From positions 196,567 through 260,566 of the forward strand of contig AWSN01000001.1 in assembly GCA_000505065.1 (NCBI GenBank): a stretch of 64,000 bases of DNA, given 5' to 3'. Of this stretch, positions 3,817-64,000 are shown piece after piece. Source of the stretch: Parcubacteria bacterium RAAC4_OD1_1. Its GTDB lineage: Bacteria > Patescibacteriota > Minisyncoccia > Phycocordibacterales > UBA9973. Position 1 is the stretch's first letter; every line of letters starts with the position of its first letter. The notes below the pieces were generated by a model. The model saw only the letters and a program-made list of their open reading frames with translations. It did not search any database and was not told the DNA's origin. The position numbers were made by a program, and so were the translations under genes.

Positions 3817-3851
3817 ATAAGAAATCCCCCTCTACTAGAGGGAATTTACTG

Positions 3852-3879
3852 GCTCCCCACTTGGGACGAAGTGGGAACC
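3852..3879 (+). repeat. Hairpin repeat R3
   Basis: GCTCCCCACTTGGGACGAAGTGGGAACC, a perfect 7-bp stem. Preceded by the palindrome CCCTCTAcTAGAGGG. Confidence 0.8.
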
Positions 3880-4000
3880 TTAATGGTTAATGATAAGGAT
3901 AAAATTAAAAATTAAGGCCCAAACTTGGAATAATATTCAAAAGTTGTTTAGCAACAAAAAAAATAGTCTTGAAAGTATAAATACCATCAAGACTATATTT

Positions 4001-4627: not shown

Positions 4628-4799
4628 TGTTAAATCTCCTATATTTTTGCAACATATTTCTTTATTTGTTTTTTAGAAAATTGTTGCGAGTTAGTGCTGT
4701 TCTCAAATCGTTGTTGATTCTGCCGCAGCTAATAATAATCAATAATTAATTACTATTAGCCGAGGCAGAAGAATTTTAAAGAACTATAATACTCCTTAC

Positions 4800-4828
4800 A
4801 GTATAGCATATTATAACCTATTTGTCAA
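4800..4828 (-). promoter_or_regulatory. Near-consensus sigma70 promoter plus palindromic operator-like module
   Basis: Minus strand reads TTGACA-N17-TATACT, then GTAAGGAGTATTATAGTTCTTT. The palindrome CTATAaTACT..AGTATAG overlaps the -10. Confidence 0.55.
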
Positions 4829-4835
4829 TGTTAAA

Positions 4836-4858: not shown

Positions 4859-4865
4859 ATTACTG

Positions 4866-4893
4866 GCTCCCCACATGGGACGAAGTGGGAACC
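4866..4893 (+). repeat. Hairpin repeat R4
   Basis: GCTCCCCACATGGGACGAAGTGGGAACC, flanked by TACTG..CTTACTGG. Confidence 0.8.
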
Positions 4894-4970
4894 TTACTGG
4901 GAGAGTATAAATAGAAAAATCCACCTCAGTATAATGAAGGGATTTCCCTTCCACTAAAGTGGATTAATTT

Positions 4971-5429: not shown

Positions 5430-5543
5430 CTTGTTATTATTTAATTTTGTTTAACATTTAGTGAATTATCTACACCTCCAACAAGAAGCAAAGATAATCC
5501 ACCAAATACAATTAAATAATCAAAATATCAAAGAACTATACTA

Positions 5544-5572
5544 CTCTTTATAGTATAGCATAATAGAACCTA
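5544..5572 (-). promoter_or_regulatory. Near-consensus sigma70 promoter plus palindromic module
   Basis: Minus strand reads TTGACA-N17-TATACT, then ATAAAGAGTAGTATAGTTCTTTG. The palindrome ACTATACT..AGTATAGT spans the -10 and +1. Confidence 0.55.
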
Positions 5573-5585
5573 TTTGTCAATATCT

Positions 5586-5613
5586 GCTCCCCACATGGGA
5601 CGAAGTGGGAACC
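5586..5613 (+). repeat. Hairpin repeat R5
   Basis: GCTCCCCACATGGGACGAAGTGGGAACC, identical to R4. Confidence 0.8.
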
Positions 5614-5640
5614 TTAATAAAGGATTATAAATGATGTATA

Positions 5641-11679: not shown

Positions 11680-12729
11680 TTATTTTATAGAGTTACCTGT
11701 TTTAATTACGTGGTCAACAAGTGTATAAGTATAACCCATTTCGTTATCGTACCAACCCATAACTTTTATGAGGTTACCTCCAACAACACGGGTCATTTCA
11801 AGATCTGCAATACAAGCATGACTCTCACCTAAGATATCAGATGAGACTATTGGGTCTTCTGTAATAGTAAATATTTTATCCCAATGAGGATCTTTTGAAG
11901 CATTTTTAAGAATTTCATTAACTTCTTCTTTTGTTGTTTCTTTTTTAGAAATAAAAGTTACATCCACAATAGATCCACAAATAACAGGCACACGAATTGA
12001 TATTCCATCAAAGAGACCTTTAAGCACCGGAAAGGCTTCTGTGACGGCAATAGCTGCCCCTGTAGAGCTCGGTATGATGTTTTGAGCTGCCGCACGGCCT
12101 TCTCTTAGATCTTTCTTACTTGGACCATCCACGATTGATTGAGTAGCAGTGTATCCATGAACAGTGTTGAGTATTGCTTTTTCTATTCCAAGACTTTCGT
12201 GAAGTATAGCAATAAGTGGTGAAGCTGCATTGGTGGTACAAGAAGCATTTGAAGTGATATCACAAGTCCCAAATTTATCTTCATTTACACCAAGGAGAAT
12301 AGTCTCGCCATGAGTTTCAGAATCTTTACCTTTAGATGGCGCAGATATTACTACTTTTTTTGCTCCACAATCTAAGTGGAATTTTGCTTTATCATAGGAA
12401 GTAAATACCCCAGTGGACTCTACAACAACATCAATATCTAAATCTTTCCAAGGAAGCTTTGTTGTATCTTTTTCTGAAATATATTTTATTTTTTTATCAT
12501 CAATTACAATAAAAGAATTTAATCCTGCTTCATCTTTTTCTATTTCAATCTTTTTACCCCATTTACCATAGACAGTGTCATACTCAAGGAGATAAGAAAG
12601 GCTATCAATAGAACCAAGATCATTAATAGCAATTATTTCAATTTCAGGTTTATTCCAAGCAACCTTTAAAACAGCTCTACCAATCCTCCCAAAACCATTT
12701 ATCGCAACTCTTATTTTTTTGTTTTCCAT
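11680..12729 (-). CDS. gap: Glyceraldehyde-3-phosphate dehydrogenase
   Basis: NGFGRIGR NAD-binding motif and the ASCTTN catalytic-Cys region. Confidence 0.85.
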   Translation of the reverse strand: MENKKIRVAINGFGRIGRAVLKVAWNKPEIEIIAINDLGSIDSLSYLLEYDTVYGKWGKKIEIEKDEAGLNSFIVIDDKKIKYISEKDTTKLPWKDLDIDVVVESTGVFTSYDKAKFHLDCGAKKVVISAPSKGKDSETHGETILLGVNEDKFGTCDITSNASCTTNAASPLIAILHESLGIEKAILNTVHGYTATQSIVDGPSKKDLREGRAAAQNIIPSSTGAAIAVTEAFPVLKGLFDGISIRVPVICGSIVDVTFISKKETTKEEVNEILKNASKDPHWDKIFTITEDPIVSSDILGESHACIADLEMTRVVGGNLIKVMGWYDNEMGYTYTLVDHVIKTGNSIK

Positions 12730-16240: not shown

Positions 16241-17557
16241 TTACTTAAACATTTTACTATTTGTTTTTGGGAGATAAAATAAAGGATCTAGATGTGCATT
16301 AGATTTTGTTAATCTTGGTTGTGTAAGTATCTTACCTGGACAACTTTGACTTTCAAAAGATTCCACAGCTACCCCATCAGAAGCATAAACAGAAATATGT
16401 AAATGTGGACCAGTAGAAGAACCAGAACCAAATACCCCTTTTACTCCACCTGATAATCCTACTATATCTCCAGTTTTTATTTTCTGACCTTTTTCAACAG
16501 AAATTGCAGATAAGTGACCATAAGTACTCGAAAGACCATTATTGTATTTGATCAAAACCCATTTACCAAAAGAAGCACCTTTACAAGAAAGATCTGTGTT
16601 CCCTGTATCTATTACAACTCCTGTAGCCATTGATTTAACTGGAGTCCCTGTTGATGATCTAAAATCAATTCCATAATGGAAAGTTGAAATACTTGAATTG
16701 AAAGGATTAATTCTAATACCATATTTTGAAGTTATTAAAATACTATCAAGTGGCCATGCCAATACCTCTGATCCTTTTTTAGGTAGAAAACTTGGATTAA
16801 TAAGTAATTTTAATTGAGCCTCATAGTCTTCCATTTCTTTTTCAAAAACATCTTTTCTTTTTTCTGCTTCTTTTAATAATTTCTGATATTCAGCTTCTTT
16901 GTTTTTAGTTTGATTAAGAAGATTATCTTTTTCTTTTTTAGTACTTAATATAGCAGATTCTTGAGCTCTAAGAGTTTGTTTTAGATTTTTTAATTTTTCT
17001 TGTTCGTTCAATTTTTCAATTTTAGAATTTATTAAATCTACTTTTTTATTTACAAGTTCTTCTTTGTGTTCTTTTACACTATTATTTATTTCTAAAATAT
17101 CATAATATTCTCTACTTGCTTCCCATAAACCATTTTTTGAAAGCATTATTTCAAGTAAAGTGTTTTTATCTTTTTTATAAAGAGCATTTATCATCTCACT
17201 TAAAGATTTTTCTGATGTTCTTATTGATTCCTCTTTATCTCCTATATTATTTGTGAGTTCATCTATAACAAGTGATGCAGCTCCAATTTTTTTTTCTACC
17301 TGAGCTCTTTCTTTAAGAAGTTTATCTCTAGTTAGGGTAAGTTCTTTGATAACTTTTGCTAAAGATTCTTTTTCGGCACTAGTCTTCGTAATAGCATCTT
17401 GATATTTTGCTATTTCTTTATCTAAAGCTTTTATCTGGCTGTTTATATCATTTATTTGATTTTCTATTTCTTTTTTAGTATCAGCGAAAGTATAAAAAAA
17501 GGAAAAACAAAAAAATACAATCATTACAAGTGATAAAATTGTTAATTTTCTCTTCAT
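16241..17557 (-). CDS. M23 family metallopeptidase with N-terminal TM and coiled-coil (EnvC-like)
   Basis: C-terminal HYGIDFRS..GPHLHISV M23 motifs. Long coiled-coil N-terminal region. Confidence 0.8.
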   Translation of the reverse strand: MKRKLTILSLVMIVFFCFSFFYTFADTKKEIENQINDINSQIKALDKEIAKYQDAITKTSAEKESLAKVIKELTLTRDKLLKERAQVEKKIGAASLVIDELTNNIGDKEESIRTSEKSLSEMINALYKKDKNTLLEIMLSKNGLWEASREYYDILEINNSVKEHKEELVNKKVDLINSKIEKLNEQEKLKNLKQTLRAQESAILSTKKEKDNLLNQTKNKEAEYQKLLKEAEKRKDVFEKEMEDYEAQLKLLINPSFLPKKGSEVLAWPLDSILITSKYGIRINPFNSSISTFHYGIDFRSSTGTPVKSMATGVVIDTGNTDLSCKGASFGKWVLIKYNNGLSSTYGHLSAISVEKGQKIKTGDIVGLSGGVKGVFGSGSSTGPHLHISVYASDGVAVESFESQSCPGKILTQPRLTKSNAHLDPLFYLPKTNSKMFK

Positions 17558-25306: not shown

Positions 25307-25519
25307 TTAATGTGCTAATTTTGCTAATTTATCACAAGGCCACCCAAAAATGAAAGTCAAAGCTACTAATATCCAGTAAAATGGAGCGAAAGCAAAATAG
25401 ATAACTTTATCTTCTTTCCACATTGGTAAATACCACTTTTGAACTCTAACATAAAGTAAATTAAGTGGAACTGCAATTATATTTAAAATTATAATAATTA
25501 ATGATGCTATGTATTTCAT
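25307..25519 (-). CDS. Small hypothetical membrane protein (70 aa)
   Basis: Two predicted TM helices. The stop overlaps the trpS start by 4 nt. Confidence 0.35.
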   Translation of the reverse strand: MKYIASLIIIILNIIAVPLNLLYVRVQKWYLPMWKEDKVIYFAFAPFYWILVALTFIFGWPCDKLAKLAH

Positions 25520-26490
25520 ATATTTACTCCTATTTTATTTCTGATAATATCCATTTTTTGAGTTATACCATTTTTAACAAAAGAAGCCCCTTCTTTCAAA
25601 ATATTTATTACTTCATCTTTATGGTTTTCATAATATATCCTTTTTTCTCTCATTGGTGATATAAAATTTATAATTTCATTTATAAGCATTTCTTTAGATT
25701 CTTTATATGAAAGTCCACCATCTTTATATCTTTTTTTCAAAGATAATAATTCTTCTCCTTTTAAGAATAATTTATGTAAAGTAAAAATATTACATTCTTC
25801 AGGGTCTTTAGGATCTTCTGGTCTTTTTGAATCAGTGACAATACTCATTACAGCTTTTTTAATTTCTTCATCTGTTCCAAAAAGTGGAATTGTATTTTTA
25901 TAACTTTTACTCATTTTTCTACCATCTATTCCAGGAACAATTGCAACTTCTTTAAGTATTAAAGCTTCTGGGAGTTTAAAAGTTTCTCCATAAATGTTGT
26001 TAAACTTTATTGCTATATCTCTGGCGTATTCTAAATGTTGTCTTTGGTCTTGGCCGACTGGGACTATATCTGCATCTTGTATTAGAATATCTGAAGCCAT
26101 AAGTACAGGGTAATCGAAAAGGCCAACATTTATTTCCTTTGCTTTTTGATATGCATCTTTATAAGCTGTAGCTCTTTCTAGAAATGGCATAGTTATTATA
26201 CAATTAAAATACCAGGTAAGCTCTGTGACTGAAGGTATGTCTGATTGTTTAAAAAGATGAACATTTTTAGGATCAAGACCACAAGCTAAATAGTCCATAG
26301 CAACATTTAAAATATTATTTGAAAGTTCTTTTTTGTTCTGAATAGTAGTCATTGCATGAAAATCTGCAATAAATATAAAAGCTTCATATGAATCTTGTAA
26401 ATCAACAAATTGCTTTATTGCTCCAAAATAGTTTCCTATATGGATAGTTCCTGAGGGTTGTATCCCTGATAATAATCTCTTTTTAGTCAT
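25516..26490 (-). CDS. trpS: Tryptophanyl-tRNA synthetase
   Basis: SGIQPSGTIHIGNYFGA (HIGH-like region) and KMSKS. 324 aa. Confidence 0.85.
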   Translation of the reverse strand: MTKKRLLSGIQPSGTIHIGNYFGAIKQFVDLQDSYEAFIFIADFHAMTTIQNKKELSNNILNVAMDYLACGLDPKNVHLFKQSDIPSVTELTWYFNCIITMPFLERATAYKDAYQKAKEINVGLFDYPVLMASDILIQDADIVPVGQDQRQHLEYARDIAIKFNNIYGETFKLPEALILKEVAIVPGIDGRKMSKSYKNTIPLFGTDEEIKKAVMSIVTDSKRPEDPKDPEECNIFTLHKLFLKGEELLSLKKRYKDGGLSYKESKEMLINEIINFISPMREKRIYYENHKDEVINILKEGASFVKNGITQKMDIIRNKIGVNI

Positions 26491-36060: not shown

Positions 36061-36444
36061 TTACTGAGTTATTATACTGCAAATTTCACCCATTTCTTCA
36101 TCTAAAATACAGTCTATTTTATTACATTCTATGAGTCCACCTTCACACATAAGCTTGCAGTCTTCATTTGGGCACTTATTGAAATCATAAGCTTTTAAAC
36201 TATACCTCTTGAAAGATTTAAGTTGATTGGGTGGACAATCATCAGGATTTGAACAATCTCTTATTGTGCAAATTTCTAAATTTGAATCACATGGTATCTC
36301 TATTATAAAATCAAAATCTTTTTTAAAATAAAAAAAATAAAAACCAGATAATATGACTATTAAAAATAGTAATATATTTATTAGAGTAAATATTGTTAAG
36401 AATTTCTTAGGTTTAACTTCTGAAACAGATATCTTATCTTCCAT
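36061..36444 (-). CDS. Membrane-anchored cysteine-rich small protein
   Basis: One TM helix followed by ~80 extracytoplasmic residues containing 14 Cys (CDSNLEICTIRDCSNPDDCPPNQ...). Confidence 0.45.
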   Translation of the reverse strand: MEDKISVSEVKPKKFLTIFTLINILLFLIVILSGFYFFYFKKDFDFIIEIPCDSNLEICTIRDCSNPDDCPPNQLKSFKRYSLKAYDFNKCPNEDCKLMCEGGLIECNKIDCILDEEMGEICSIITQ

Positions 36445-37427: not shown

Positions 37428-37940
37428 CTATTTATTATCTTTAATCCAAATTTTTAAAAAATTAAATCTCTCTTTCCAAAACTTTTTCCAACCCATATCT
37501 TGATTTTCCATAATCTCTTGAAAATAAATATTATTTATAATTGTAAAAATTTCTTTAGCTTCTTCTATTTCTGTTTTTGGAAAATATTTATCTTTATAAA
37601 TACTTTTTCTAAACATAAAATGATTCGTCTCATGACAAATAGTCCTTATTGGTGTTTGAGTTGAAGCAGATATAGATATACCCTCTTCTATGTCCATAGA
37701 ATATGGAGTAGAATTTAAAAAACATTTAAAATTTTTAGGTAAATCTGCTTTAAAAATTTCACTCATTCTAGATATAAAAAATTTCTCAACCTCTGGTGTC
37801 CAGACTAATTCAAATTTACCAATAATTTCATTATCTACAGGAAAAATTCCAGTCTTTTTTTCTTGGTCAAAAATCAATTCACAAGCATTAATCTTTTCTT
37901 GGCATTTCTCATCTATTTTTTTATCATAAATAAACTCCAT
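37428..37940 (-). CDS. Hypothetical small protein with HExxH motif (putative metallopeptidase-like)
   Basis: RTICHETNHFMF contains HETNH. 170 aa, no signal peptide. Confidence 0.45.
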   Translation of the reverse strand: MEFIYDKKIDEKCQEKINACELIFDQEKKTGIFPVDNEIIGKFELVWTPEVEKFFISRMSEIFKADLPKNFKCFLNSTPYSMDIEEGISISASTQTPIRTICHETNHFMFRKSIYKDKYFPKTEIEEAKEIFTIINNIYFQEIMENQDMGWKKFWKERFNFLKIWIKDNK

Positions 37941-39057: not shown

Positions 39058-39073
39058 ATTGTTCTAAAGGTGG

Positions 39074-39157
39074 AACAAATTATTTTATGAAAAAATGTCT
39101 GGCACTGGCTCCCGCCCCCCTCGTCCGAGAACTTTTTCAGAGAATTTAATTTGTGTA
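39074..39157 (-). repeat. MITE-like TIR element, copy A (in the 5' leader of aguA)
   Basis: Terminal inverted repeats AACAAATTATTTTATGAAAAAATGTC ... GACTTTTTCAGAGAATTTAATTTGTGT. Core GGCACTGGCTCCCGCCCCCCTCGTCC. Ends ~17 nt before the aguA ATG. Confidence 0.7.
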
Positions 39158-39172
39158 ACTTTTTTATATTAT

Positions 39173-40036: not shown

Positions 40037-40055
40037 ATTGTTTCCAAAAGCGAAA

Positions 40056-40137
40056 TAAATTATTTTATGAAAAAATGTCTGGCACCGGCTCCCGTCCCCT
40101 AAATCCGAGGACTTTTTTCAGAATATAATTTGTGAAG
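40056..40137 (-). repeat. MITE-like TIR element, copy B (in the 5' leader of aguB)
   Basis: Same element, ~85% identical to copy A. Ends ~19 nt before the aguB ATG. Confidence 0.7.
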
Positions 40138-40146
40138 CTTTTTGTT

Positions 40147-41376: not shown

Positions 41377-43092
41377 TTAATAAATTTCATTCTGGTAGCA
41401 TTTTTCACAATATATAATCTCTGGTCTCTCTGGGGCGTAAGGGGTTTCAAATTCATTATTACATCCTTCTTTCATACACTTACGATGCCAAAGCTTAAAT
41501 GGATTCCTTTGAGATAATCTTTCATAATGCCTACAATTAGGGCAATATCTAGGCAGTGCTATATTATGACGCCTTAAAAAAGATAATTCTTCTGGCATTA
41601 TTCTATAAGCAAGGGTACATTGAGTCAATTCATTCCCGTTATTAGGGCAAGATATTATTTCATTGATAATTTCATCTTTTACATCCTTTATATGATCTGG
41701 TAAATCTTCACTTTTAATAGTTACATTGTAATTTCTTTCAATTGGTTTTCTATACAAATAACCTTCTTCAGAAATAGAATTCTTACTTTTAGGATAATAT
41801 TCTTGAGCTATGGTTTCATTGTAAGCAAATGGAGATAATTCGGGTGGAAAAAATTCACCATATTTATATACTCTACCTTTATTATCTATATATGGCATAT
41901 CTGACATATGGTCTATTATTTTGGGAATTAACTTCTCATATTCTTCTTTGGTGTATTGTTTGTTCAAGATACAATATTCACCCTTTCTAATTCCAATGCA
42001 ACCAAAAAGATTTTTTGAATTGTAACACATATAAGTATAATTTGTATCTATACTTCCATGATTTAAAACACAAAATAGATTATTAAAAGCCTTCAATCCA
42101 GAATCAACCCCTTCATACATTAAAGAAGTTCCTACTCCAAATCCATACATATCATAACTATCTTTAGCGTCGAAACCATGAATTAAATATTTTGAATCTT
42201 CTACAAGCCCATATATATCAAAACAATTTTTAATATTTTTAGAATTCAAAATAGCATCACCAACACAATCCACTGACTTTATAATCCCAGCATATTTATT
42301 TGGATAATTCAAAATAAAATTTTTATATTTATTTTTAAATTCATTCAATATCTTATAACTACCAAAATCTAGTTCCTTTTTTATTTTTTCATATTCTTCT
42401 TTTAAATATTGTTCATTTAATATACAAAATTTTTTATTTCTTAAATTTACACAACCAATACAATCTTGACAATTAATACATTCTTTAAGAAAAATAGAAT
42501 TTATTGATTGATCTGCACCAAAAGAAAAGAAAGTCTTATAAGATGAATCACAAAAAGAATCTTCATAACATTCTTCACATTTCTGAATTTTATATGTATC
42601 AAAACAATTTTTCAAACTAGAGGCACCAAGAGAATACATAGTATCTTCTGCTAAATAAGATGCGTAAACTAAATAGCAATTTTTTAAGTCTAAAGCATGA
42701 TTTACATAAGGTGAATTTATGCAATTATTATTACCTAAATTTTGAAGTGGTACTTTTGATATTAACTCTTTGAATTGCTCAAAAAATGGTTTAGAGAAAT
42801 CATATTCTTTTCCGTAATCTTTTGGATCCCATTTATCACTCCACCATATATCACGATCATAAACTTTAACATTAGCCTTTGGGTGAAACATAGTAATCAT
42901 ATTATTGCCACCAAAATCACAAATTCTCCTAAAAAGAGCTCTTTCATTTCTCCAAACCATTCTTCTTACCACCCTACACTCCGGGCAAAATGTCGGTGGA
43001 GAGACTTTTATTTTTTCATAAAATACAAAATCTTCCGGCTCAATAATAAAGTCATTTTTACAATTCTGACATTTTTTAATCTCATTTTGCAT
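41377..43092 (-). CDS. Cysteine-rich repeat protein of unknown family (571 aa) embedded in the polyamine operon
   Basis: N-terminal zinc-ribbon CQNC..x24..CPEC. Internal ~120-aa duplicated modules ending C(I/F)LN(E/K)QY(L/T)KEEYEK(I/L). C-terminal CPNC..C..GC..YCEKC. Paralog at 63034..64000. Confidence 0.6.
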   Translation of the reverse strand: MQNEIKKCQNCKNDFIIEPEDFVFYEKIKVSPPTFCPECRVVRRMVWRNERALFRRICDFGGNNMITMFHPKANVKVYDRDIWWSDKWDPKDYGKEYDFSKPFFEQFKELISKVPLQNLGNNNCINSPYVNHALDLKNCYLVYASYLAEDTMYSLGASSLKNCFDTYKIQKCEECYEDSFCDSSYKTFFSFGADQSINSIFLKECINCQDCIGCVNLRNKKFCILNEQYLKEEYEKIKKELDFGSYKILNEFKNKYKNFILNYPNKYAGIIKSVDCVGDAILNSKNIKNCFDIYGLVEDSKYLIHGFDAKDSYDMYGFGVGTSLMYEGVDSGLKAFNNLFCVLNHGSIDTNYTYMCYNSKNLFGCIGIRKGEYCILNKQYTKEEYEKLIPKIIDHMSDMPYIDNKGRVYKYGEFFPPELSPFAYNETIAQEYYPKSKNSISEEGYLYRKPIERNYNVTIKSEDLPDHIKDVKDEIINEIISCPNNGNELTQCTLAYRIMPEELSFLRRHNIALPRYCPNCRHYERLSQRNPFKLWHRKCMKEGCNNEFETPYAPERPEIIYCEKCYQNEIY

Positions 43093-45857: not shown

Positions 45858-45863
45858 TTTAAA

Positions 45864-45945
45864 TATAAAAGTTACACAAATTATATTCTGAAAAAAGTCC
45901 TCAGACGAGGGGGACGGGAGCCGGTGCCAGACATTTTTTCATAAA
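45864..45945 (+). repeat. MITE-like TIR element, copy C (in the 5' leader of asd, inverted on the + strand)
   Basis: Reverse complement matches copies A/B/D. Same orientation relative to the downstream gene. Ends ~28 nt before the asd ATG. Confidence 0.7.
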
Positions 45946-45973
45946 ATAATTTGTTTCGCTTTAAAAATTAAAG

Positions 45974-49246: not shown

Positions 49247-50332
49247 CTATAAACCTTCTTCTTTTAATTTTTCTATTAATTCTTTATTCTTTTTTGAAAG
49301 TTTAGGCATAGTAATATTTACTTTTACTATAATATCTCCTCTTCCATAATTATTTGGAACACCCTTACCTCGTACTCTTAATAATTCTCCATTATTTATT
49401 CCTTCTGGAATTTTTATTTCCAAATTTCCACCATCTAAAAGTTTAAGCTTATAAGTAGAACCTAAAAGTGCATCAGTAAGCTTGATTTTTATTTCTGTAA
49501 TTAGATTATCTCCATCTCTTTTATATATATCATTTGATTTTACTTTCAATCTAATAAATAAATCTCCAAATCTTCCACCTTGCACTCCATCTCCCTCTCC
49601 ATTCAATTTTAATCTTTGCCCATCTTCGACTCCACTAGGAATATTTATAGATATAACATCATCACTTTTGTTAATTCCTATTCCTTTACAATTAGAACAT
49701 TTTTCTTCAGGGATTTTTCCAGATCCGCTACATTCTCCACAAGCAGATACAGATTCAAAATTTCCAAGTATTGTTCTTTTAACTTCTCTTATTTTTCCAG
49801 CACCACCACATTTTTTACAATTATTTAATTTAGTACCCTTTTTTGCTCCAGTACCCTCACAAACTTTACAAGTTGAATTTCTATTAATGCGAATATCTTT
49901 TGAAACTCCAAAAATAGATTCCTCAAATGTTAAATCAAGAAGAACTTCTAGATCTCGCCCTTTTTTCTGGCCTCCTCTAGAACGACCACCCATTCCACCT
50001 CCAAAGAAGTCACCAAAAATATCTCCTAAATCTCCCATGTCAAATTCTACTCCACCATTCGCATTTCTGAAATCAAAACCACCAAAACCTCCAAACCCAG
50101 ACGTTCCAGGATTAAACCCACCCATATCTGCACTACCAAATTGATCATAGTTTGATCTTTTCTTATCATCAGAAAGGATCTGGTAAGCTTCATTTACTTC
50201 CTTGAACTTTGTATCATCACCCTTGTTTTTATCAGGATGGTAAGTGTGTGCAAGCTTATGAAAAGCTTTTTTAATTTCATCTTTTGATGCACCTTTATTT
50301 ACTCCCAAAATTTTATAATAGTCTTTGGACAT
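49247..50332 (-). CDS. dnaJ: Chaperone DnaJ
   Basis: J-domain with HPD, G/F-rich region, four CxxCxGxG repeats. Confidence 0.9.
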   Translation of the reverse strand: MSKDYYKILGVNKGASKDEIKKAFHKLAHTYHPDKNKGDDTKFKEVNEAYQILSDDKKRSNYDQFGSADMGGFNPGTSGFGGFGGFDFRNANGGVEFDMGDLGDIFGDFFGGGMGGRSRGGQKKGRDLEVLLDLTFEESIFGVSKDIRINRNSTCKVCEGTGAKKGTKLNNCKKCGGAGKIREVKRTILGNFESVSACGECSGSGKIPEEKCSNCKGIGINKSDDVISINIPSGVEDGQRLKLNGEGDGVQGGRFGDLFIRLKVKSNDIYKRDGDNLITEIKIKLTDALLGSTYKLKLLDGGNLEIKIPEGINNGELLRVRGKGVPNNYGRGDIIVKVNITMPKLSKKNKELIEKLKEEGL

Positions 50333-50361
50333 AATTTTTATATAATACCATAGTTTAATAA

Positions 50362-50476
50362 AAATTTCTGAAATAATTCTTATCGAGGGGGCGGTTGAGG
50401 CTGACGAGCCGAAACTTCAGCATAAATTTCAGTAGAAATTTTGCGGACCCGAGAGAAGAAGTTATTTCAGAAATTT
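50362..50476 (-). repeat. TIR-flanked structured element between dnaK and dnaJ
   Basis: 15-bp perfect terminal inverted repeats AAATTTCTGAAATAA / TTATTTCAGAAATTT. GC-richer core with nested hairpin AAATTTC-AGTA-GAAATTT and a GGCTCGTCAGCC..CCGCCCCCTCG segment resembling the MITE core. Confidence 0.55.
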
Positions 50477-50496
50477 TATCTATTATTTCTATTTTA

Positions 50497-52386
50497 TTAT
50501 TTACCCTCTTCTTTTACTTCTGCATCTTTTATTTCTGGTTCTTGTTCCTCTGGTGTAGGATTATTTCCTTCGGGTTGTGCGTTTCCTGCTTTACTCATAG
50601 CTTCACCTATTTTAGAAATTTCAGACGAAAGTTCTTCTGTAGATTTCTTAATAGCTTCGATATCATTTCCTTCTTTTACAGTTTTAAGAGAAGTTATCTT
50701 ACCTTCTACTTCTGTTTTTAAAGAAGAATCTATTTTATCTCCATAATCTTTCAAGGATTTTTCTGCAGTAAAGATCATCATATCGGCAGTATTTTTAATA
50801 TCTGCAATTTCTTTTTTCTTTGCATCTTCTTCAGCATGAGCTTCTGCATCTTCTTTCATTTTCTTTATATCTTGATCTGTAAGACCAGAGGAAGCTTCAA
50901 TACGAATAGATTGAACTTTTCCTGAAGCTTTATCCATAGCTTTAACATTAAGTATTCCATTTGCATCAACATCAAAAGAAACTTCAACTTGTGGTATACC
51001 ACGTGGAGCAGGAGGAATACCGTCTAAAATAAACCTTCCGAGAGATTTATTGTCTGTTGCCATTGGGCGCTCACCTTGAACAATATGAATTTCTACACTT
51101 GTTTGATTGTCAGCAGCAGTTGAAAAAACTTGTGATTTAGAAGTAGGAATTGTAGTATTTCTCTCTACAAGCTTTGTAGCAACACCTCCTAAAGTTTCAA
51201 TACCCAAAGATAATGGAATAACATCAAGAAGTAAAACATCACGGACATCCCCTTGAAGAACTCCCCCTTGTACAGCAGCACCAAGCGCTACAACTTCGTC
51301 TGGATTGATTGAACGATTTGGCTCTTTACCAAAAAGTTTTTTCACTTCTTCTACTATTTTTGGCATTCTTGTTTGACCTCCAACCATTATTATTTCATTA
51401 ATATCATCCATTTTAAAAGGACTTGCTTCCATTGCACGCTTTGTAATTTCTATTGAACGATTTATATATTCTTCAGCTAATGACTCTAGGGTTGCACGGG
51501 ACATCTTTATAAGTAAATGCTGAGGACCTTCTGCACCAGATGTTATAAATGGAATATTTACTTCTGTTTCCATTGTAGTTGAAAGTTCAATTTTTGCTTT
51601 TTCAGCTGCTTCATCAAGTCTTTGAAGGGCAAGAGGATCTTTGGTGACATCTATTCCTGATTGTTTCTTAAATTCATCTGCTAACCAATGAATTATTTTT
51701 TGATCAATATCACGACCCCCCATATGAGAATCTCCATCTGTTGACTTCACTTCAATGACATCATCTGAAACTTCAAGAACAGAAACATCAAATGTTCCAC
51801 CTCCAAAATCAAAAACTACAATCTTTTCATTTTTCTTATTATTAAACCCATAAGCAAGAGCAGCGGCGGTTGGTTCGTTTATAATTCTTTTAACATCAAG
51901 CCCAGCGATCATTCCTGCATCTTTTGTAGCTTTTCTTTGTGCATCATTAAAATAAGCAGGAACAGTAATTATCGCTTCTGTTATTTTTTCTCCAAGTTTT
52001 GCTTCGACATCGGCTTTAATTTTAGAAAGTATCATTGCAGAAATTTCTTCTGGACGAAACCATTTTTCACCAATATTTACTTCTGCCCCAGAATCTTTAC
52101 CTTTTTGAATTTTAAATGGGGCAGTCTTTGAAGTTTTCTGTATTTCAGGATCTTCAAACATATGACCCATAAATCTTTTAATACCATAAATTGTATTTTG
52201 TGGATTTGTCACAGACTGACGCTTTGCAAGAAGACCCACTAACCTATCACCATTTTTAGAAATAGCGACAATAGATGGAGTAGTTCTTCCACCTTCTATG
52301 TTCTCTATAATCTTTGGTTGACCACCTTCAATGATAGCAACCGCACTGTTTGTTGTACCCAAATCTATACCTATTATTTTTGACAT
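50497..52386 (-). CDS. dnaK: Chaperone DnaK (Hsp70)
   Basis: [18 protein letters not shown], and full Hsp70 architecture. 629 aa. Confidence 0.95.
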
Positions 52387-52400
52387 ATATTTTGTAGCAA

Positions 52401-52483
52401 AACAAATTATTTTATGAAAAAATGTCTGGCACTGGCTCCCGTCCCCTATAGCCCCTAGACTTTTTTCAGAATATAATTTGTGA
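52401..52483 (-). repeat. MITE-like TIR element, copy D (in the dnaK 5' UTR)
   Basis: Same element. Lies between the dnaK promoter (52533..52561) and the start codon, ending ~15 nt before the ATG. Confidence 0.7.
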
Positions 52484-52532
52484 AGCTAATTATTAAATTA
52501 ATAATGTTTTTATAATAAAATTATACAAACTA

Positions 52533-52561
52533 ATTATATACTAACGAAGTTATTTTGACAA
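52533..52561 (-). promoter_or_regulatory. Sigma70-like promoter for dnaK
   Basis: Minus strand reads TTGTCA-N17-TATAAT. The -35 overlaps the left arm of the palindromic operator. Confidence 0.55.
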
Positions 52562-52586
52562 GTATTTAGTGGTCACTAAATACTTG
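52559..52586. promoter_or_regulatory. Perfect palindromic operator (13 bp + GT + 13 bp) between divergent dnaK and regulator promoters
   Basis: CAAGTATTTAGTG-GT-CACTAAATACTTG. Overlaps the dnaK -35 and abuts the regulator -35. Confidence 0.6.
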
Positions 52587-52615
52587 TTGAATATTATATT
52601 TATATATGATATACT
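52587..52615 (+). promoter_or_regulatory. Sigma70-like promoter for the PaaX-like regulator gene
   Basis: TTGAAT-N17-TATACT, 9 nt before the ATG at 52625. Confidence 0.5.
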
Positions 52616-52624
52616 GTCAATAGT

Positions 52625-53155
52625 ATGAAAAAACGTGATTTTTCAAGGAAAATTATAAAAATGCTTTCTGAGAAGCCAGCTATTTCTCTATCTGAAATAG
52701 AAGAAAAGATACTAAATGATAAGTCTACAAAATATGCTTTAAATCGCTCTATAAAGGGTCTAAAAGACTCAGGGCTGATCGAAAACATAGATTCTGGTCA
52801 AAGTAAGTATGCAAAGCTTACAAAGGAAGGTAAGAAAAAGGCCCATAGTATTAAGCTTGAATGTGAGAATGCTGTAATAAGTAATACTTGGGATGGATTT
52901 TGGAGAATTATAATTTTAGATGTAGAAGAAGACAGAAAAAGTGAAAGAGAAGCAATTAGGTATCTACTTAAAAAAGCAGGATTTGTATCTGTAAAAAATT
53001 CTGTTTGGATTTCTATGTATCCTTTCGAATACCTGTTTACAAATATAAAAAATGATTTAGATCTTACAACAGAACTTATGATAATAGTCACAGATAAGAT
53101 CGACAAAAAAACAGAAAAAGAATTTTTATCTCTCTGTTTAACTAAAACAGAGTGA
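52625..53155 (+). CDS. PaaX-like winged-HTH transcriptional regulator (candidate dnaK-operon repressor)
   Basis: N-terminal wHTH. C-terminal WDGFWRIIILDVEEDRKSEREAIRYLLKKAGFVSVKNSVWISMYP matches the PaaX_C pattern WDG.W..v..D.pE..R..R..LR..L...GF..L.NSVWiSP. 176 aa. Confidence 0.6.
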   Translation: MKKRDFSRKIIKMLSEKPAISLSEIEEKILNDKSTKYALNRSIKGLKDSGLIENIDSGQSKYAKLTKEGKKKAHSIKLECENAVISNTWDGFWRIIILDVEEDRKSEREAIRYLLKKAGFVSVKNSVWISMYPFEYLFTNIKNDLDLTTELMIIVTDKIDKKTEKEFLSLCLTKTE

Positions 53156-58170: not shown

Positions 58171-59496
58171 TTAGTCAATGGTAATTTTTATTTTATCTTT
58201 ATCTTCTGGTAATAATTTTTTCCAAGGAGGAAAAACAGAAAGTGATGCATGAGACACACCTGGATCTAACAAAAAAACAGAATTGGCATCTATCTTTTTA
58301 AGATTTACTAATTTACTTTTTAAAAATGATATATCAGGATTCCACAAAAGATTAACATTACCATTTAAAAGAAATTCAACATTATTTATCTCTTTATGAA
58401 CCAATTGATCAGATTCGTAAAAATTAAATTTTAAATCCTTTATGTTTGTAATATCAATTTGATTTATTTCTTTATCTTTTATATCTACAGAAAACAATTT
58501 TATAAGATTATTTTTCAAATCTTTTTCTTCTATTAAAATAGCAGTAAGACTTCCTGATAATAGAACAGAAGCTTTTGGATCTTTAGAGTAACCAATAGTG
58601 TCAGTATTATAAGAAAAAGAACTTGCTCCTTGGTAATATATATATCCTTCTGGAATTTCTGCTTTTAATTTCTTTTCTAATACATTTTTAAGAGTAGAAT
58701 TTGCAAAAATTTTTAAATTATCTTCATTTACACTTCCTATTTTATAAGCTTCTCCAGAAATACCCCCAACAAGTGGAGATTTGAGATTAGCATATATTTT
58801 GCTATATTTATCCATTCCTTTAAATTCACTTATATAAAATTTTTTTGGACTGCCATTGTAGGACTCACCTGCAAGAAAAGAAGTGATGGGGGTAGAGACT
58901 TCTCCTAAAACTTTTTTACCATTTACTATTTTATACCCAGGGATGATTACAGTATTATCTGTTTTGTAAGTTTTACCATTTTCATCTACTAAGAAAGTTC
59001 CAGCTAAAAGCTTTTGTGAAGTTGTAGCAAATTCATTATAAAAAACTACTTCACCTTTAGCCTTAATGGATACATTTTCCTTTTCTGATAATTCAATATT
59101 TTTCTTTTCTTCTCCTGTCACAATCATAACTTCAAAATTTATTTTACTTTCGTCGTCTCCTGAAAGAATAAATTTTTTATCTTTCAATATTAAATTTTCA
59201 TTTCTTTTTGTTATATGAATACTCGCATTATAAAAATATTCAGAAGCCCAAAACATAATACCTAAGGAAAACATAAAAATAAAAAGTAAAGATAAGCTTT
59301 TGCTCAAACCACGTTTTTTTTCTTTTATCTCTGGAAAAGATTGAATCCTTTCTCTTTTTTTAATTTTTGATATATATTTATCTATTTTTATATCTTCATC
59401 ATTAATTTCTTTTTTATTATCTTTAATGATAATTTTTTTTGTTATTTTTTTAAATTTTAAATCCTCAAGTATAATTTTAGACATATTTTTTTTCAT
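58171..59496 (-). CDS. Hypothetical bitopic membrane protein (cytoplasmic N-terminus, 1 TM, large extracytoplasmic domain)
   Basis: TM LSLLFIFMFSLGIMFWA at ~aa 65-85. Overlaps the upstream actin-like ATPase gene by 20 nt. Possible PilN/O- or FtsQ-like partner. Confidence 0.5.
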   Translation of the reverse strand: MKKNMSKIILEDLKFKKITKKIIIKDNKKEINDEDIKIDKYISKIKKRERIQSFPEIKEKKRGLSKSLSLLFIFMFSLGIMFWASEYFYNASIHITKRNENLILKDKKFILSGDDESKINFEVMIVTGEEKKNIELSEKENVSIKAKGEVVFYNEFATTSQKLLAGTFLVDENGKTYKTDNTVIIPGYKIVNGKKVLGEVSTPITSFLAGESYNGSPKKFYISEFKGMDKYSKIYANLKSPLVGGISGEAYKIGSVNEDNLKIFANSTLKNVLEKKLKAEIPEGYIYYQGASSFSYNTDTIGYSKDPKASVLLSGSLTAILIEEKDLKNNLIKLFSVDIKDKEINQIDITNIKDLKFNFYESDQLVHKEINNVEFLLNGNVNLLWNPDISFLKSKLVNLKKIDANSVFLLDPGVSHASLSVFPPWKKLLPEDKDKIKITID

Positions 59497-60667
59497 TTTT
59501 TCTCATTACCGCTATTGCTTCGACCATAAGAAAAGGATCACAAGTCCCTTCTTCTACACTGCACATACTTAAGAATTCTGGACCATCCAGGGTGACGACA
59601 GAACACTTCCCTCCTTCTAATACTTTTTGTATATGTTCTTCTGTACGCAATACAGTGACAAACCATTCTTTTATATCATTATCTGCAGTTAAAAAAATTG
59701 TATTGGGTAAAACAAGATTCCTTGGTAATGTACTTACTGCTTCTATAAAAGCTTCACCCCAAGAATTTTCTATTGATTTAAGTAAGGGTGTAATTTCTTT
59801 TTTATAATTTTCAGAAATATCATTTTTGCAATAAAGACCAAATATTTCCTCGGCATCACGTAATTCTATTTCCATCTTTGTACACATATATTTAAAAAAT
59901 GTTTTCTTCCCAAAAGGAAAAGACAACGATGCTTTTAGTATTCCATTTAAAACTATACCCACATCTGTCATTTCTCCACTAATATCCAAAATAATATAAG
60001 AATTAGGATGTATGTATTTATCTCTTATTGCCACGTATGTATCCATCATAAATGAAGAGAATTTAATAGGTGATCTATAAAAATTTTTTTCTATTGTATT
60101 TTTAATTTTTTCAAGAAGAATAATTGGGGACATAGAAATAAACATATTAATTTCTACAGATTTTGTCATTTTGTTTATAGGGTTATCTACATAATAACCA
60201 TTCAGAGACATTCCCATTATATGATGCTCAATCATTTTTGGTTTGGTTCTTAATTTATCATAACGGATAGAAAAAGATTCATTTACTTTTAAAAGCTCTT
60301 CTTTGACAAGATCATCAGCCAGTTTTTGATTAAAATAAAAATATTTATCTTTAGTGTGTTTTATTAATCTAGTTTCAGAAATATACCAAGGAGAAGATAA
60401 AACACAATATATTTCATCTATTTTCCAATGACCCATTTTCTTAATTTCTATAGCAGAAAAAGTTATAGCATCTAGAGTTTCTCTTAAGAGTTTAGAAACA
60501 TTGTTATCTTTGTTTATTTTTATTTCAGACCTAGCAGATTTTATAATAGAAGGAATAAAATTATTATCAGCTGACATCTTTACAATACCTACTGTGACAC
60601 TACTAGAACCAATATCAAAAATAGCAACAACTTTATCTTTATTTTTTGTTTTAAACAAAAATCTCAT
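59477..60667 (-). CDS. Actin-like ATPase, FtsA/PilM family
   Basis: Phosphate-1 VVAIFDIGSSSVTVGIV and phosphate-2 ILDISGEMTDVGIV motifs. Confidence 0.6.
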   Translation of the reverse strand: MRFLFKTKNKDKVVAIFDIGSSSVTVGIVKMSADNNFIPSIIKSARSEIKINKDNNVSKLLRETLDAITFSAIEIKKMGHWKIDEIYCVLSSPWYISETRLIKHTKDKYFYFNQKLADDLVKEELLKVNESFSIRYDKLRTKPKMIEHHIMGMSLNGYYVDNPINKMTKSVEINMFISMSPIILLEKIKNTIEKNFYRSPIKFSSFMMDTYVAIRDKYIHPNSYIILDISGEMTDVGIVLNGILKASLSFPFGKKTFFKYMCTKMEIELRDAEEIFGLYCKNDISENYKKEITPLLKSIENSWGEAFIEAVSTLPRNLVLPNTIFLTADNDIKEWFVTVLRTEEHIQKVLEGGKCSVVTLDGPEFLSMCSVEEGTCDPFLMVEAIAVMRKNEKKYV

Positions 60668-63033: not shown

Positions 63034-64000
63034 TTAATAAACTTCATTCTGATAGCACCTCTCACAATAAACTATTTCAGGTCTATCAGGAGAATATGAA
63101 GTCTCAAAAGTATTAGTACAGCCTTCTTTCATACAGGATCTATGCCAGAGTTTAAGAGGGTTTCTTTGTGAGAGTCTTTCATAGTGTCTACAGTTAGGAC
63201 AGAGTCTTGGGATGGGGAGATTCATACGGCGGTAGAACTGGTATTCTTCGGGGATAATTTTGAATGCTTCTGTGCATTGATGATTACAGTCTTTGTGTAA
63301 ACATTCTATGACTTTACCTACTATGGATTCATCTGTATCATTTATATCATCTGGTATATCACTATTCTTGATATCTATAGTATAGTTTCTTTCTTCTTTA
63401 TCTTTCCATTTGTATCCTTGCTCTTGTGCTTCTTCTTTAGTTAATGGATAGTATTCTTGAGCTATTGTTTCGTTATATGCAAAGGGAGAGAGTTCAGATG
63501 GGAAGAATTCACCGTATTTATATACTCTACCTTTACTATCTATATAGGGCATATCTGACATGTGTTGGATAATTTTAGGGACTAATTCTTCGTATTGTTC
63601 TTTGGTGTATTGGCGGTTGAGGATGCAGTATGATTTGTTTTTAAGACCGATGCAGGCAAAACAGTTGGAGCAATTAATACAAAGATGGACTAATTCAGTA
63701 TTTTTATTTCCTTTAGAGTGAGAAAAAAATTTAGTTAAATAACCTCCGTCAGCAGCAAGAGAAGACTCATAACATAATTCATTATTTAAACCACCATTTA
63801 TATCATAACTATCTTTCAGTCCATCAAATATCCGCCAACAATTTTTTGCATTTTCTGATTTAGTAACAATAAAAGAATTTTTAACATTTTTTGAATTTAA
63901 AATATCATCACCATAAGAATCAACACTATTAACAATATGAGCAAATTTATGAATACTATTTTTAATTAAAGCATAAAACTCTATTTTCAATTTTAATAAA
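63034..64000 (-). CDS. Cysteine-rich repeat protein, paralog of 41377..43092 (partial, N-terminus beyond window end)
   Basis: C-terminal ~200 aa are highly similar to the first copy (YTKEQYEELVPKIIQHMSDMPYIDSKGRVYKYGEFFP..PRLCPNCRHYERLSQRNPLKLWHRSC..YCERCYQNEVY). ~70% nucleotide identity. No stop upstream of 64000. Confidence 0.55.
   Translation of the reverse strand, partial: LLKLKIEFYALIKNSIHKFAHIVNSVDSYGDDILNSKNVKNSFIVTKSENAKNCWRIFDGLKDSYDINGGLNNELCYESSLAADGGYLTKFFSHSKGNKNTELVHLCINCSNCFACIGLKNKSYCILNRQYTKEQYEELVPKIIQHMSDMPYIDSKGRVYKYGEFFPSELSPFAYNETIAQEYYPLTKEEAQEQGYKWKDKEERNYTIDIKNSDIPDDINDTDESIVGKVIECLHKDCNHQCTEAFKIIPEEYQFYRRMNLPIPRLCPNCRHYERLSQRNPLKLWHRSCMKEGCTNTFETSYSPDRPEIVYCERCYQNEVY

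Follow-up and report, generated by a model that had tools for sequence, protein, structure and literature searches.

A dispersed foldback repeat with a three-way-junction tip, terminator-like in layout, lies between dnaK and dnaJ in a Patescibacteria genome

REP/BIME and REPIN elements are extragenic palindromes that lie after genes, stabilise the upstream mRNA and often occur as inverted pairs; individual REPs are simple hairpins of 20-40 nt that are mobilised by RAYT transposases. In the dnaK-dnaJ spacer of Escherichia coli a small RNA, tpke11, is annotated, which is not known outside enterobacteria and does not occur as a dispersed repeat. Copies of the ERIC repeat at gene 3' ends can alter mRNA decay, and the paired arms of Correia elements are subject to RNase III cleavage and can affect expression (PMC10969869). 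The pneumococcal SPRITE repeats are AT-rich, have AAAA/TTTT ends and an over-long terminator-like fold, are enriched at gene 3' ends and have been proposed to be co-opted terminators (2011, PMC3049150; review PMC10969869); a target-site duplication could not be established for them (PMC3049150). Here, we describe a foldback element at positions 50361-50477 of a 64-kb stretch of the genome of Parcubacteria bacterium RAAC4_OD1_1 (64,000 nucleotides, hereafter the window), and show to which family it belongs, how its structure is conserved, where its copies lie in genomes and how they turn over between relatives. The family is uncatalogued, occurs in Patescibacteria and consists of foldback repeats of 100-130 nt, each with a conserved three-way junction at its tip.

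The element lies between two minus-strand open reading frames (ORFs) that encode DnaK (50497-52386; HSP70) and DnaJ (49247-50332), as identified from Pfam domains on the identical source contig. An earlier note on this DNA, made from the letters alone, had described it as bounded by perfect 15-bp inverted repeats around a nested hairpin. Both features are real, and the repeat is one base longer, at 16 nt: AAAATTTCTGAAATAA (50361-50376) and TTATTTCAGAAATTTT (50462-50477) are 100% complementary and are separated by a gap of 85 nt. Inside these outer arms are the nested hairpin AAATTTC-AGTA-GAAATTT at 50424-50441 and a second inner hairpin, GGCTGACGAGCC, at 50399-50410. This is the sole perfect inverted repeat of at least 16 nt with a gap of at most 150 nt in the window, the G+C content of which is 29.8%, and none was found in 30 dinucleotide-preserving shuffles. 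The predicted fold is also far more stable than that of shuffled sequences on the minus, dnaK-sense strand (z = -5.7) and on the plus strand (z = -6.3), and on each strand 0 of 200 shuffles were as stable. Within the window, neither the core nor the arms recur.

Copies are, however, found elsewhere in Patescibacteria. The dnaK-dnaJ spacer of L003, the closest relative for which a contig was available (DnaJ 75% identical), contains an element of the same architecture and of different sequence, and the dnaK leaders of L003 and L005 also hold the same kind of element. A covariance model, R1, was built from four sequences (the window element and three relatives), the consensus of which is a long stem with a three-way-junction cap and compensatory changes in 20 of 39 pairs. 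Two sets of sequences were scanned: a dnaJ-centred set, comprising 0.97 Mb of sequence that surrounds dnaJ in 85 Patescibacteria, and a metagenome set collected with a pattern from two hairpins of the core (P2 and P3, below), with at least 120 stretches at at least 80 loci, for which all counts given here cover the matches listed. R1 identified 16 strong non-redundant copies in the former and at least about 90 further copies in the 80 metagenome loci listed, so that approximately 100 further copies are recognised in Patescibacteria contigs by covariance model, although many loci possibly come from related genomes and the counts are not independent events. Selection of the metagenome set relied on a single P3 sequence and inflates the conservation of the core there; the unbiased evidence comes from the dnaJ-centred set. 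The window element scores 113.7 bits with R1 (E 2.6e-24), and relatives outside the build set of R1 score 41-100 bits. With a second model, R2, built from 83 copies, the match in the window spans 50352-50480 (-) and scores 90.5 bits (E 7.5e-20, filters off), partly by construction since the window copy is among the 83; E-values of models built here are rough. Host contigs belong to Patescibacteria (Paceibacteria) and range from 26 to 67% GC. Rfam 15 contains no family that matches at its gathering score, and matches at E up to 10 were limited to chance-level similarity to microRNAs and small nucleolar RNAs; GC-rich copies likewise had no Rfam match. A search of the literature yielded nothing relevant on repeats or RNA motifs of Patescibacteria.

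The fold is conserved by covariation. Across the 16 copies of the dnaJ-centred set, 93.4% of cells are paired, compared with 66.7% for shuffles and 42-54% once the partners are shifted by 1-3 columns, and 35 of the 39 pairs show changes on both sides. P2 is AU-rich with a URCU loop, and in G+C-rich genomes such as L023, L024 and L084 it becomes G+C-rich with the loop kept; P3 is G+C-rich with a CGWC loop and is followed by CU. Conserved junction bases are UC after P2 and UCG before P3, and both loops and junction are conserved over the whole range of 26-67% GC. Constraint on the fold is also indicated by two copies in L094, which have a near-identical core and unrelated arms and the P2 stems of which differ by a compensatory flip of two base pairs. 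The outer arms vary between copies even within one contig (L094, 9456 versus 10348), whereas the core is conserved; AAAUAG...CUAUUU arms are common to some subfamilies only.

The window element, which occupies 50361-50477 on the minus strand, follows this architecture throughout. Read on the dnaK strand, its layout is AUAAAA-UUUCUG...CAGAAA-UUUUUAUU. The perfect 16-nt inverted repeat is formed by a 5' outer arm, AAAAUUUCUGAAAUAA (50462-50477), which has an A-run at its start, and a 3' outer arm, UUAUUUCAGAAAUUUU (50361-50376), the terminal U-run of which extends further as UUUUUAUU (50357-50364 on the plus strand). Above the arms is the inner P1 stem, the 5' strand of which, CUUCUUCUCUCGGGUCC (50445-50461), pairs imperfectly with 50377-50398 in both the minimum free energy and the centroid structure and corresponds to consensus helices 2-3, with covarying pairs. 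The 3' strand of P1 and the junction, UCAACCGCCCCCUCGAUAAGAA (50377-50398), are similarly supported by fold, consensus and covariation. P2 (50420-50444) is the AU-rich hairpin GCA-AAAUUUC-UACU-GAAAUUU-A-UGC, which covaries across the family and the UACU loop of which is of the family-typical URCU type. P3 (50399-50410) is the GC hairpin GGCU-CGUC-AGCC, which has the family-typical CGWC loop and is preceded by UUUCG, containing the conserved UCG.

With gene contexts taken from a simple ORF caller, all family copies are intergenic, and 71 of the 86 copies for which both neighbours were called abut at least one gene end, often at -25 to +20 nt from the stop codon. Between co-directional genes, 36 copies are in sense and 16 in antisense orientation. 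The dnaK-dnaJ spacers of relatives were compared, and about 12 of 58 genomes carry a family copy there, which is in sense orientation in 11 of the 12. About 15 of 57 such spacers instead have a plain long hairpin directly after dnaK, and others are very short or contain other inserts. In the other intergenic regions of the dnaJ-centred loci, 3 strong extra copies were found in approximately 900, and occupancy of the dnaK-dnaJ spacer is approximately 40-fold higher. Where two copies are adjacent, they are always arranged '+ then -', with their 3' ends facing, whatever the orientation of the flanking genes (8 cases versus 0 of '- then +'). The pairs are located at L143:7676-7929, L145:2-299, L105:1433-1686, L106:1084-1382, L111:4282-4529, L125:5672-5917, L093:1771-2032 and L122:1107-1324; those of L143 and L145 are orthologous, and pair members are of different subtypes. 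Separately, the dnaK-dnaJ spacer of L015 (5868-6000) contains a long perfect hairpin after dnaK with a different structured insert at its tip (GAGGTCTTCGGTTCGCTCGTGCAATATCG...), which hints that further tip modules may exist on the same kind of hairpin.

The outer arms also have a consistent polarity. An A-run of at least 4 is present in the 5' arm region of 60 of 94 copies, versus a T-run in 17 of 94, and a T-run of at least 4 is present in the 3' arm region of 68 of 94, versus an A-run in 19 of 94. These counts were made on model-aligned ends and replaced RNAfold stem-end calls on padded sequences, which had over-extended the stems. This polarity is most pronounced where the flanking genes are convergent or co-directional, and it is weak where they diverge. 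An A-run, a stem and a T-run are the layout of a bidirectional intrinsic terminator. In the window, the outer arm of the element begins 19 nt downstream of the dnaK stop codon (50497-50499, minus strand), and the hairpin is followed on the sense strand by a U-tract (...CAGAAAUUUUUAUU), as in intrinsic terminators. A consensus terminator scan of the window did not call the long AT-rich dnaK-dnaJ hairpin; canonical short G+C-rich terminators are also present in the window.

Downstream of the element, an extended -10-like box, TGGTATTAT (50342-50350, minus strand), is a putative dnaJ promoter, and its 3' end is 9 nt upstream of the dnaJ ATG (50330-50332). Similar TGnTAnnAT boxes are found 5-13 nt ahead of the ATG, without a Shine-Dalgarno sequence, at many first genes of the window, and equivalent boxes precede dnaJ in close relatives. 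Therefore, dnaJ is probably transcribed from its own promoter, and because this box lies just downstream of the element, the element would occupy the position of a dnaK terminator and would not lie within an obligatory bicistronic dnaK-dnaJ message. Extended -10 boxes near the ATG are also seen at, for example, 7580, 11680-12729, 16241-17557, 25516-26490, 36061-36444, 37428-37940 and 59477-60667, and a Shine-Dalgarno sequence was observed at almost no gene of the window; together, these suggest that mRNAs of this genome are as a rule leaderless or nearly so.

Comparison of close relatives indicates that the repeat is gained, lost and exchanged as a unit. L011 and L057 encode DnaJ proteins that are 96% identical, and their DNA is 85% identical over 8.4 kb. 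L057 has a family copy at the convergent ends of grpE and the PaaX gene that is cleanly absent from L011; the indel spans approximately 155 nt with the outer arms included, and L011 has no hairpin at the empty site. Additionally, the dnaK-dnaJ spacers of these two genomes hold different subtypes with different arms, and the copy in the L011 spacer is 85% identical to the copy at the grpE site of L057. Similarly, in five genomes an orthologous gene for an xerC-like tyrosine recombinase (59-67% identical; L094:10464-11234, L147:10737-11654, L118:2037-2861, L134:2733-3668 and L131:239-1264) has a family copy downstream of it; the subtypes differ among the five and one copy is inverted, and the 3' end of this gene is a second recurrently occupied site besides the dnaK-dnaJ spacer. 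Several contigs have multiple copies: L012 has 4 within 12 kb, and L143, L127 and L136 have 3 apiece. We had also considered that the core is inserted into the loops of pre-existing terminator hairpins, as suggested by the unique, perfectly paired arms with A- and T-runs. This is unproven, and it is contradicted for L057 and L011 because the whole unit, including the arms, is present or absent and the empty site has no hairpin. A phage origin was rejected, as 0 pattern matches were found in 2.9 million viral contigs.

We consider it somewhat probable that the element is a terminator-like foldback repeat that here supplies the 3'-terminal hairpin of dnaK, and that its family has spread, or has been exchanged, as a unit among intergenic sites. 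Most likely, the element is not a dnaJ-specific regulator and acts as, or mimics, the dnaK terminator. We infer termination or stabilisation, RNase III cleavage and the mechanism of mobility along the following lines. The element would be co-transcribed with dnaK and would become the 3'-terminal hairpin of the dnaK mRNA, where it would bring transcription to a complete or partial halt and shield the 3' end, and so insulate dnaK from dnaJ. Where both arms are transcribed, the resulting stem of approximately 27 bp would be a plausible substrate for RNase III. The family would move or be exchanged between intergenic sites as a whole unit, in the manner of a MITE, or miniature inverted-repeat transposable element, and whatever spreads or binds the family probably recognises it by its three-way-junction core.

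Several observations weigh against this interpretation. The proposed role in termination is deduced from the anatomy, which is unusual: intrinsic terminators have a short G+C-rich stem (approximately 5-14 bp) and a small loop, whereas the hairpin in the window is 117 nt, branched, and much longer and more AT-rich than canonical terminators, and the basal 16 bp of its stem contain 2 G-C pairs only. With respect to placement, 15 of 86 copies lie between divergent genes, the orientation bias at co-directional pairs outside dnaK-dnaJ is mild (26 sense versus 15 antisense), and in L003 and L005 sense copies precede dnaK within its 5' leader, a position at which efficient termination would do harm. 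With respect to selection, paired cells contain 48 G-U and 77 A-C combinations, and this lack of a G-U excess means that selection has left no mark specific to the sense RNA and that a strand could not be assigned. The pairs might be maintained in the DNA, on both strands or, conceivably, through palindrome-correcting template switching. With respect to spread, neither a clear target-site duplication nor a conserved terminal repeat was seen, no transposase is encoded next to the copies of the loci listed, and the three copies of L143 are visibly diverged throughout (by eye in the alignment) and all still fold, which looks more like long-term maintenance than recent bursts. The unit is thus gained, lost and exchanged, and yet its fold is maintained for long periods.

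Four alternatives were weighed. From the most to the least likely, they are a purely selfish element, a regulator dedicated to heat shock, a site bound as DNA and a small RNA released by processing. As a selfish, non-autonomous MITE, the repeat would tolerate or prefer the DNA of gene ends, its structure would serve its own mobilisation (e.g. recognition of folded single-stranded DNA by a transposase), and it would have no host role at dnaK. The multi-copy contigs, the occurrence of both orientations, the gain, loss and replacement between close relatives, the near-identical cores in unrelated gene contexts and the absence of a G-U excess, which fits pairing at the DNA level, are all consistent with such an element, and pneumococcal repeats with the same enrichment at gene ends have been read as parasitic (PMC3049150). 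Several copies per genome and presence or absence between relatives are traits shared with MITEs, whereas terminal inverted repeats conserved among copies are not found here, and the window holds 1 copy only. Since the outer arms vary and the core is conserved, the 15-16-nt terminal inverted repeats are not shown to be of the transposase type. No transposase is encoded among the 106 flanking proteins of the loci listed, in which recombinase hits are confined to the one orthologous xerC-like gene; at the only filled and empty pair of sites (L057 versus L011), which overlaps two gene ends, there is no clear direct repeat at the junctions. Nor does neutrality predict the polarity of the A- and T-runs, the 11:1 sense bias at dnaK-dnaJ or the far higher occupancy of that spacer, and old, diverged copies keep the fold. 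A purely selfish element is considered unlikely. We give about as little weight to a reading that goes further in the opposite direction, in which the three-way-junction core would be a new functional nucleic-acid module and not selfish ballast. A lineage-specific factor would read the RNA or the folded single-stranded DNA and thereby mark the ends of housekeeping transcription units (by termination, processing or end protection), with dnaK-dnaJ as the most conserved site. The loops and junction kept from 26 to 67% GC, the compensatory flips in P2 between paralogous copies with an invariant core, and the '+ then -' pairs all support this.

A dedicated cis-regulatory RNA of the heat-shock response, which would set the DnaK:DnaJ stoichiometry by attenuation, processing or temperature-dependent melting and to which the copies elsewhere would be secondary, is distinctly improbable. 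The family does recur at this locus, in about 12 of 58 dnaK-dnaJ spacers and 3 dnaK leaders, mostly in sense orientation and in genomes with 50-75% identical DnaJ and 30-67% GC, and its loops and junction are conserved while its stems covary. However, neither dnaK nor dnaJ is present in any of the 80 family-carrying metagenome loci listed, where the neighbours are unrelated housekeeping genes, among them those for EPSP synthase, exonuclease III, methionine aminopeptidase, RecA, DprA, MnmA, KsgA, gyrase, L28 and the xerC-like recombinase. A heat-shock-specific element was rejected for this reason, and yet the family is enriched at dnaK-dnaJ in the dnaJ-centred loci. Furthermore, the element ends anywhere between 2 and 44 nt from the start of dnaJ, which places the start region outside the fold; dnaJ seems to be served by a promoter of its own; and close relatives hold different subtypes at the spacer, in one genome inverted. 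An intercistronic RNA of a dnaK-dnaJ operon, as had been suggested at first, is weakened by the TGGTATTAT box and by the metagenome loci; processing or attenuation may still occur at the element.

Elements of the REP/BIME type are bound by gyrase and IHF, and the repeat could likewise be a site that acts as DNA, in which a cruciform or a single-stranded hairpin is bound by a recombinase or by a nucleoid- or replication-associated protein and transcription is irrelevant. Almost purely Watson-Crick pairing with no G-U excess, both orientations, the 8 to 0 arrangement of adjacent pairs and the short inverted repeats in the core (TTTTC-TGCT-GAAAA and GGCT-CGTC-AGCC) would all fit. The polarity of the A- and T-runs and the proximity to stop codons point instead to transcription, there is no known binding protein, and an association with tyrosine recombinases was rejected, as the 5 hits among 59 neighbours represent a single orthologous xerC-like locus. 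We regard such a site as very unlikely. Least probable of all, to the point that we give it hardly any credence, is an independent small RNA or ribozyme, in which a two-hairpin core of approximately 65 nt would be released from a long processing stem, since the conserved core between variable, perfectly paired stems long enough for RNase III, and a plus-strand CUGACGAG...GAAAC that at first sight resembles a hammerhead core, are set against no match to any Rfam ribozyme or small RNA family even at E up to 10, no conserved promoter seen and a mixed orientation relative to neighbouring genes.

Two identities were also considered and rejected. Hammerhead and twister ribozymes had come to mind from the plus-strand CUGACGAG...GAAAC and GAGGGGGCGG; neither gave an Rfam hit at E up to 10, and hammerhead stem II cannot form because CUGACGA makes up the loop and one arm of the P3 hairpin. 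Integron attC sites have conserved R''/R' outer core sites (RYYYAAC...GTTRRRY) and a variable centre and lie in arrays of cassettes beside intI, whereas here the centre is conserved and the ends are variable, and the neighbours of family copies are housekeeping genes with no cassette arrays.

The window contains a second foldback repeat, D3, of approximately 105 nt with the core TGTCTGGCACYGGCTCCCGYCCCC, at 39062-39167 (+), 40042-40146 (+) and 45860-45967 (-), and a further copy in the dnaK leader (52389-52494, minus strand), between a TTGTCA-17-TATAAT promoter (52561-52533) and the dnaK ATG. Each D3 copy fills an intergenic spacer, and all are oriented alike with respect to the gene that follows, the start codon of which lies 3-7 nt beyond the end of the copy. 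With R2, D3 copies score 22-28 bits, and generic AU-rich outer arms align only; the 57-position core of the family is replaced by an unrelated G+C-rich insert of 38-39 nt, and in a MAFFT alignment the dnaK-dnaJ element has no block in common with the D3 core (...TGTCTGGCACYGGCTCCCGYCCCC...). As only the arms align and the core is unrelated, D3 is a separate family with the foldback arm style alone in common, and a single family comprising the dnaK-leader D3 repeat and the dnaK-dnaJ element was rejected. The earlier note had suggested, as one possibility, a MITE family related to the other repeats of the window. A dispersed, structured, MITE-like family indeed exists, with approximately 100 copies elsewhere, gain and loss between relatives and compensatory changes, but membership of the D3 family does not hold, and the resemblance between the two extends to the arms and not to the core. 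Likewise, of the two elements that the note placed in the dnaK operon, the leader repeat shares the arm architecture and has an unrelated core, and the terminal inverted repeats cannot serve as a family feature, as outer arms differ from copy to copy. A small peptide encoded in D3 was rejected as not conserved between copies (by reading). A D3-like match is present at the orthologous site in L003 (8114-8218).

Several further features of the locus and window were observed. An identical DnaJ is encoded on a 171.7-kb aquifer-sediment metagenome contig, where grpE and a divergent PaaX_M-domain gene lie beside dnaK, and the relatives of DnaJ carry the labels Patescibacteria, Paceibacterota or Nomurabacteria. 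A 28-bp palindrome, CAAGTATTTAGTGGTCACTAAATACTTG (52559-52586), separates dnaK from the divergent PaaX_M-domain gene of the window (52625-53155), overlaps both promoters and is kept upstream of dnaK in L003, L005 and L006; palindrome and PaaX_M protein may form a heat-shock operator/repressor pair in organisms that lack an obvious CIRCE element. In L004 (1-1000, compared with 52387-52625 of the window; DnaJ 98% identical, dnaK-dnaJ spacer identical), a different, co-directional gene lies 113 nt upstream of dnaK in place of the divergent PaaX_M gene; the D3 repeat is located at the junction, and the difference may reflect a rearrangement at this repeat. A third repeat, GGCTCCCCAC(T/A)TGGGACGAAGTGGGAACC, has four copies in 3.4 kb (2294-2352, 3846-3904, 4860-4918 and 5580-5638), two of which are preceded by a repeat of approximately 58 nt (4772-4829 and 5524-5581) that reads as a minus-strand TTGACA-17-TATACT promoter. 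Finally, a 225-nt direct repeat with 77% identity (41783-42007 and 63437-63661) lies inside the ORFs at 41377-43092 and 63034-63990 and presumably represents paralogous gene segments.

The genomes of Patescibacteria, the candidate phyla radiation, are streamlined and very small, and hardly anything is known of how transcription is punctuated in them or whether interspersed repeats are tolerated. As the family is abundant, structurally constrained and absent from Rfam, its covariance model could be used to annotate intergenic DNA of Patescibacteria. The family is also a candidate for the definition of gene ends, including the dnaK/dnaJ boundary, in genomes where leaderless-type promoters seem to be used with no Shine-Dalgarno sequence, and it offers a tractable case in which to ask whether terminator-like repeats are parasites or co-opted parts. 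Moreover, it cautions against reading a hairpin between dnaK and dnaJ as a heat-shock-specific regulator.

In comparison to described systems, the element resembles tpke11 as a structured RNA at the same intergenic position and differs in that no match was found in the Rfam scan. The '+ then -' pairs recall the inverted pairs of REP/BIME, and no RAYT-like gene was found near any copy among the flanking proteins of the loci examined. ERIC/IRU repeats of Enterobacteriaceae and Vibrionaceae are similarly imperfect palindromes, of approximately 127 bp, that are intergenic, transcribed, found in either orientation and variable in copy number (PMC10969869); they have a full-length consensus that includes the terminal repeats, whereas in the Patescibacteria family the arms vary and the branched core is conserved, and there is no sequence similarity between the two. 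Correia elements (CREE/NEMIS) of Neisseria are likewise foldback repeats, of 100-150 bp, that are co-transcribed with neighbouring genes; they are bounded by conserved terminal repeats of 26 bp, show a TA duplication and contain an IHF site (PMC10969869), none of which is seen in the Patescibacteria family. The nearest described analogue is the pneumococcal SPRITE, which is also a small, AT-rich interspersed repeat near gene 3' ends with an A-run and a T-run as its sole terminal repeat (PMC3049150). SPRITE is, however, a simple 18-bp duplex with a U-rich tract and is confined to S. pneumoniae and S. mitis (PMC3049150), whereas the Patescibacteria family has a conserved three-way-junction tip and covarying stems and extends over a class-level clade with genomes of 26-67% GC.

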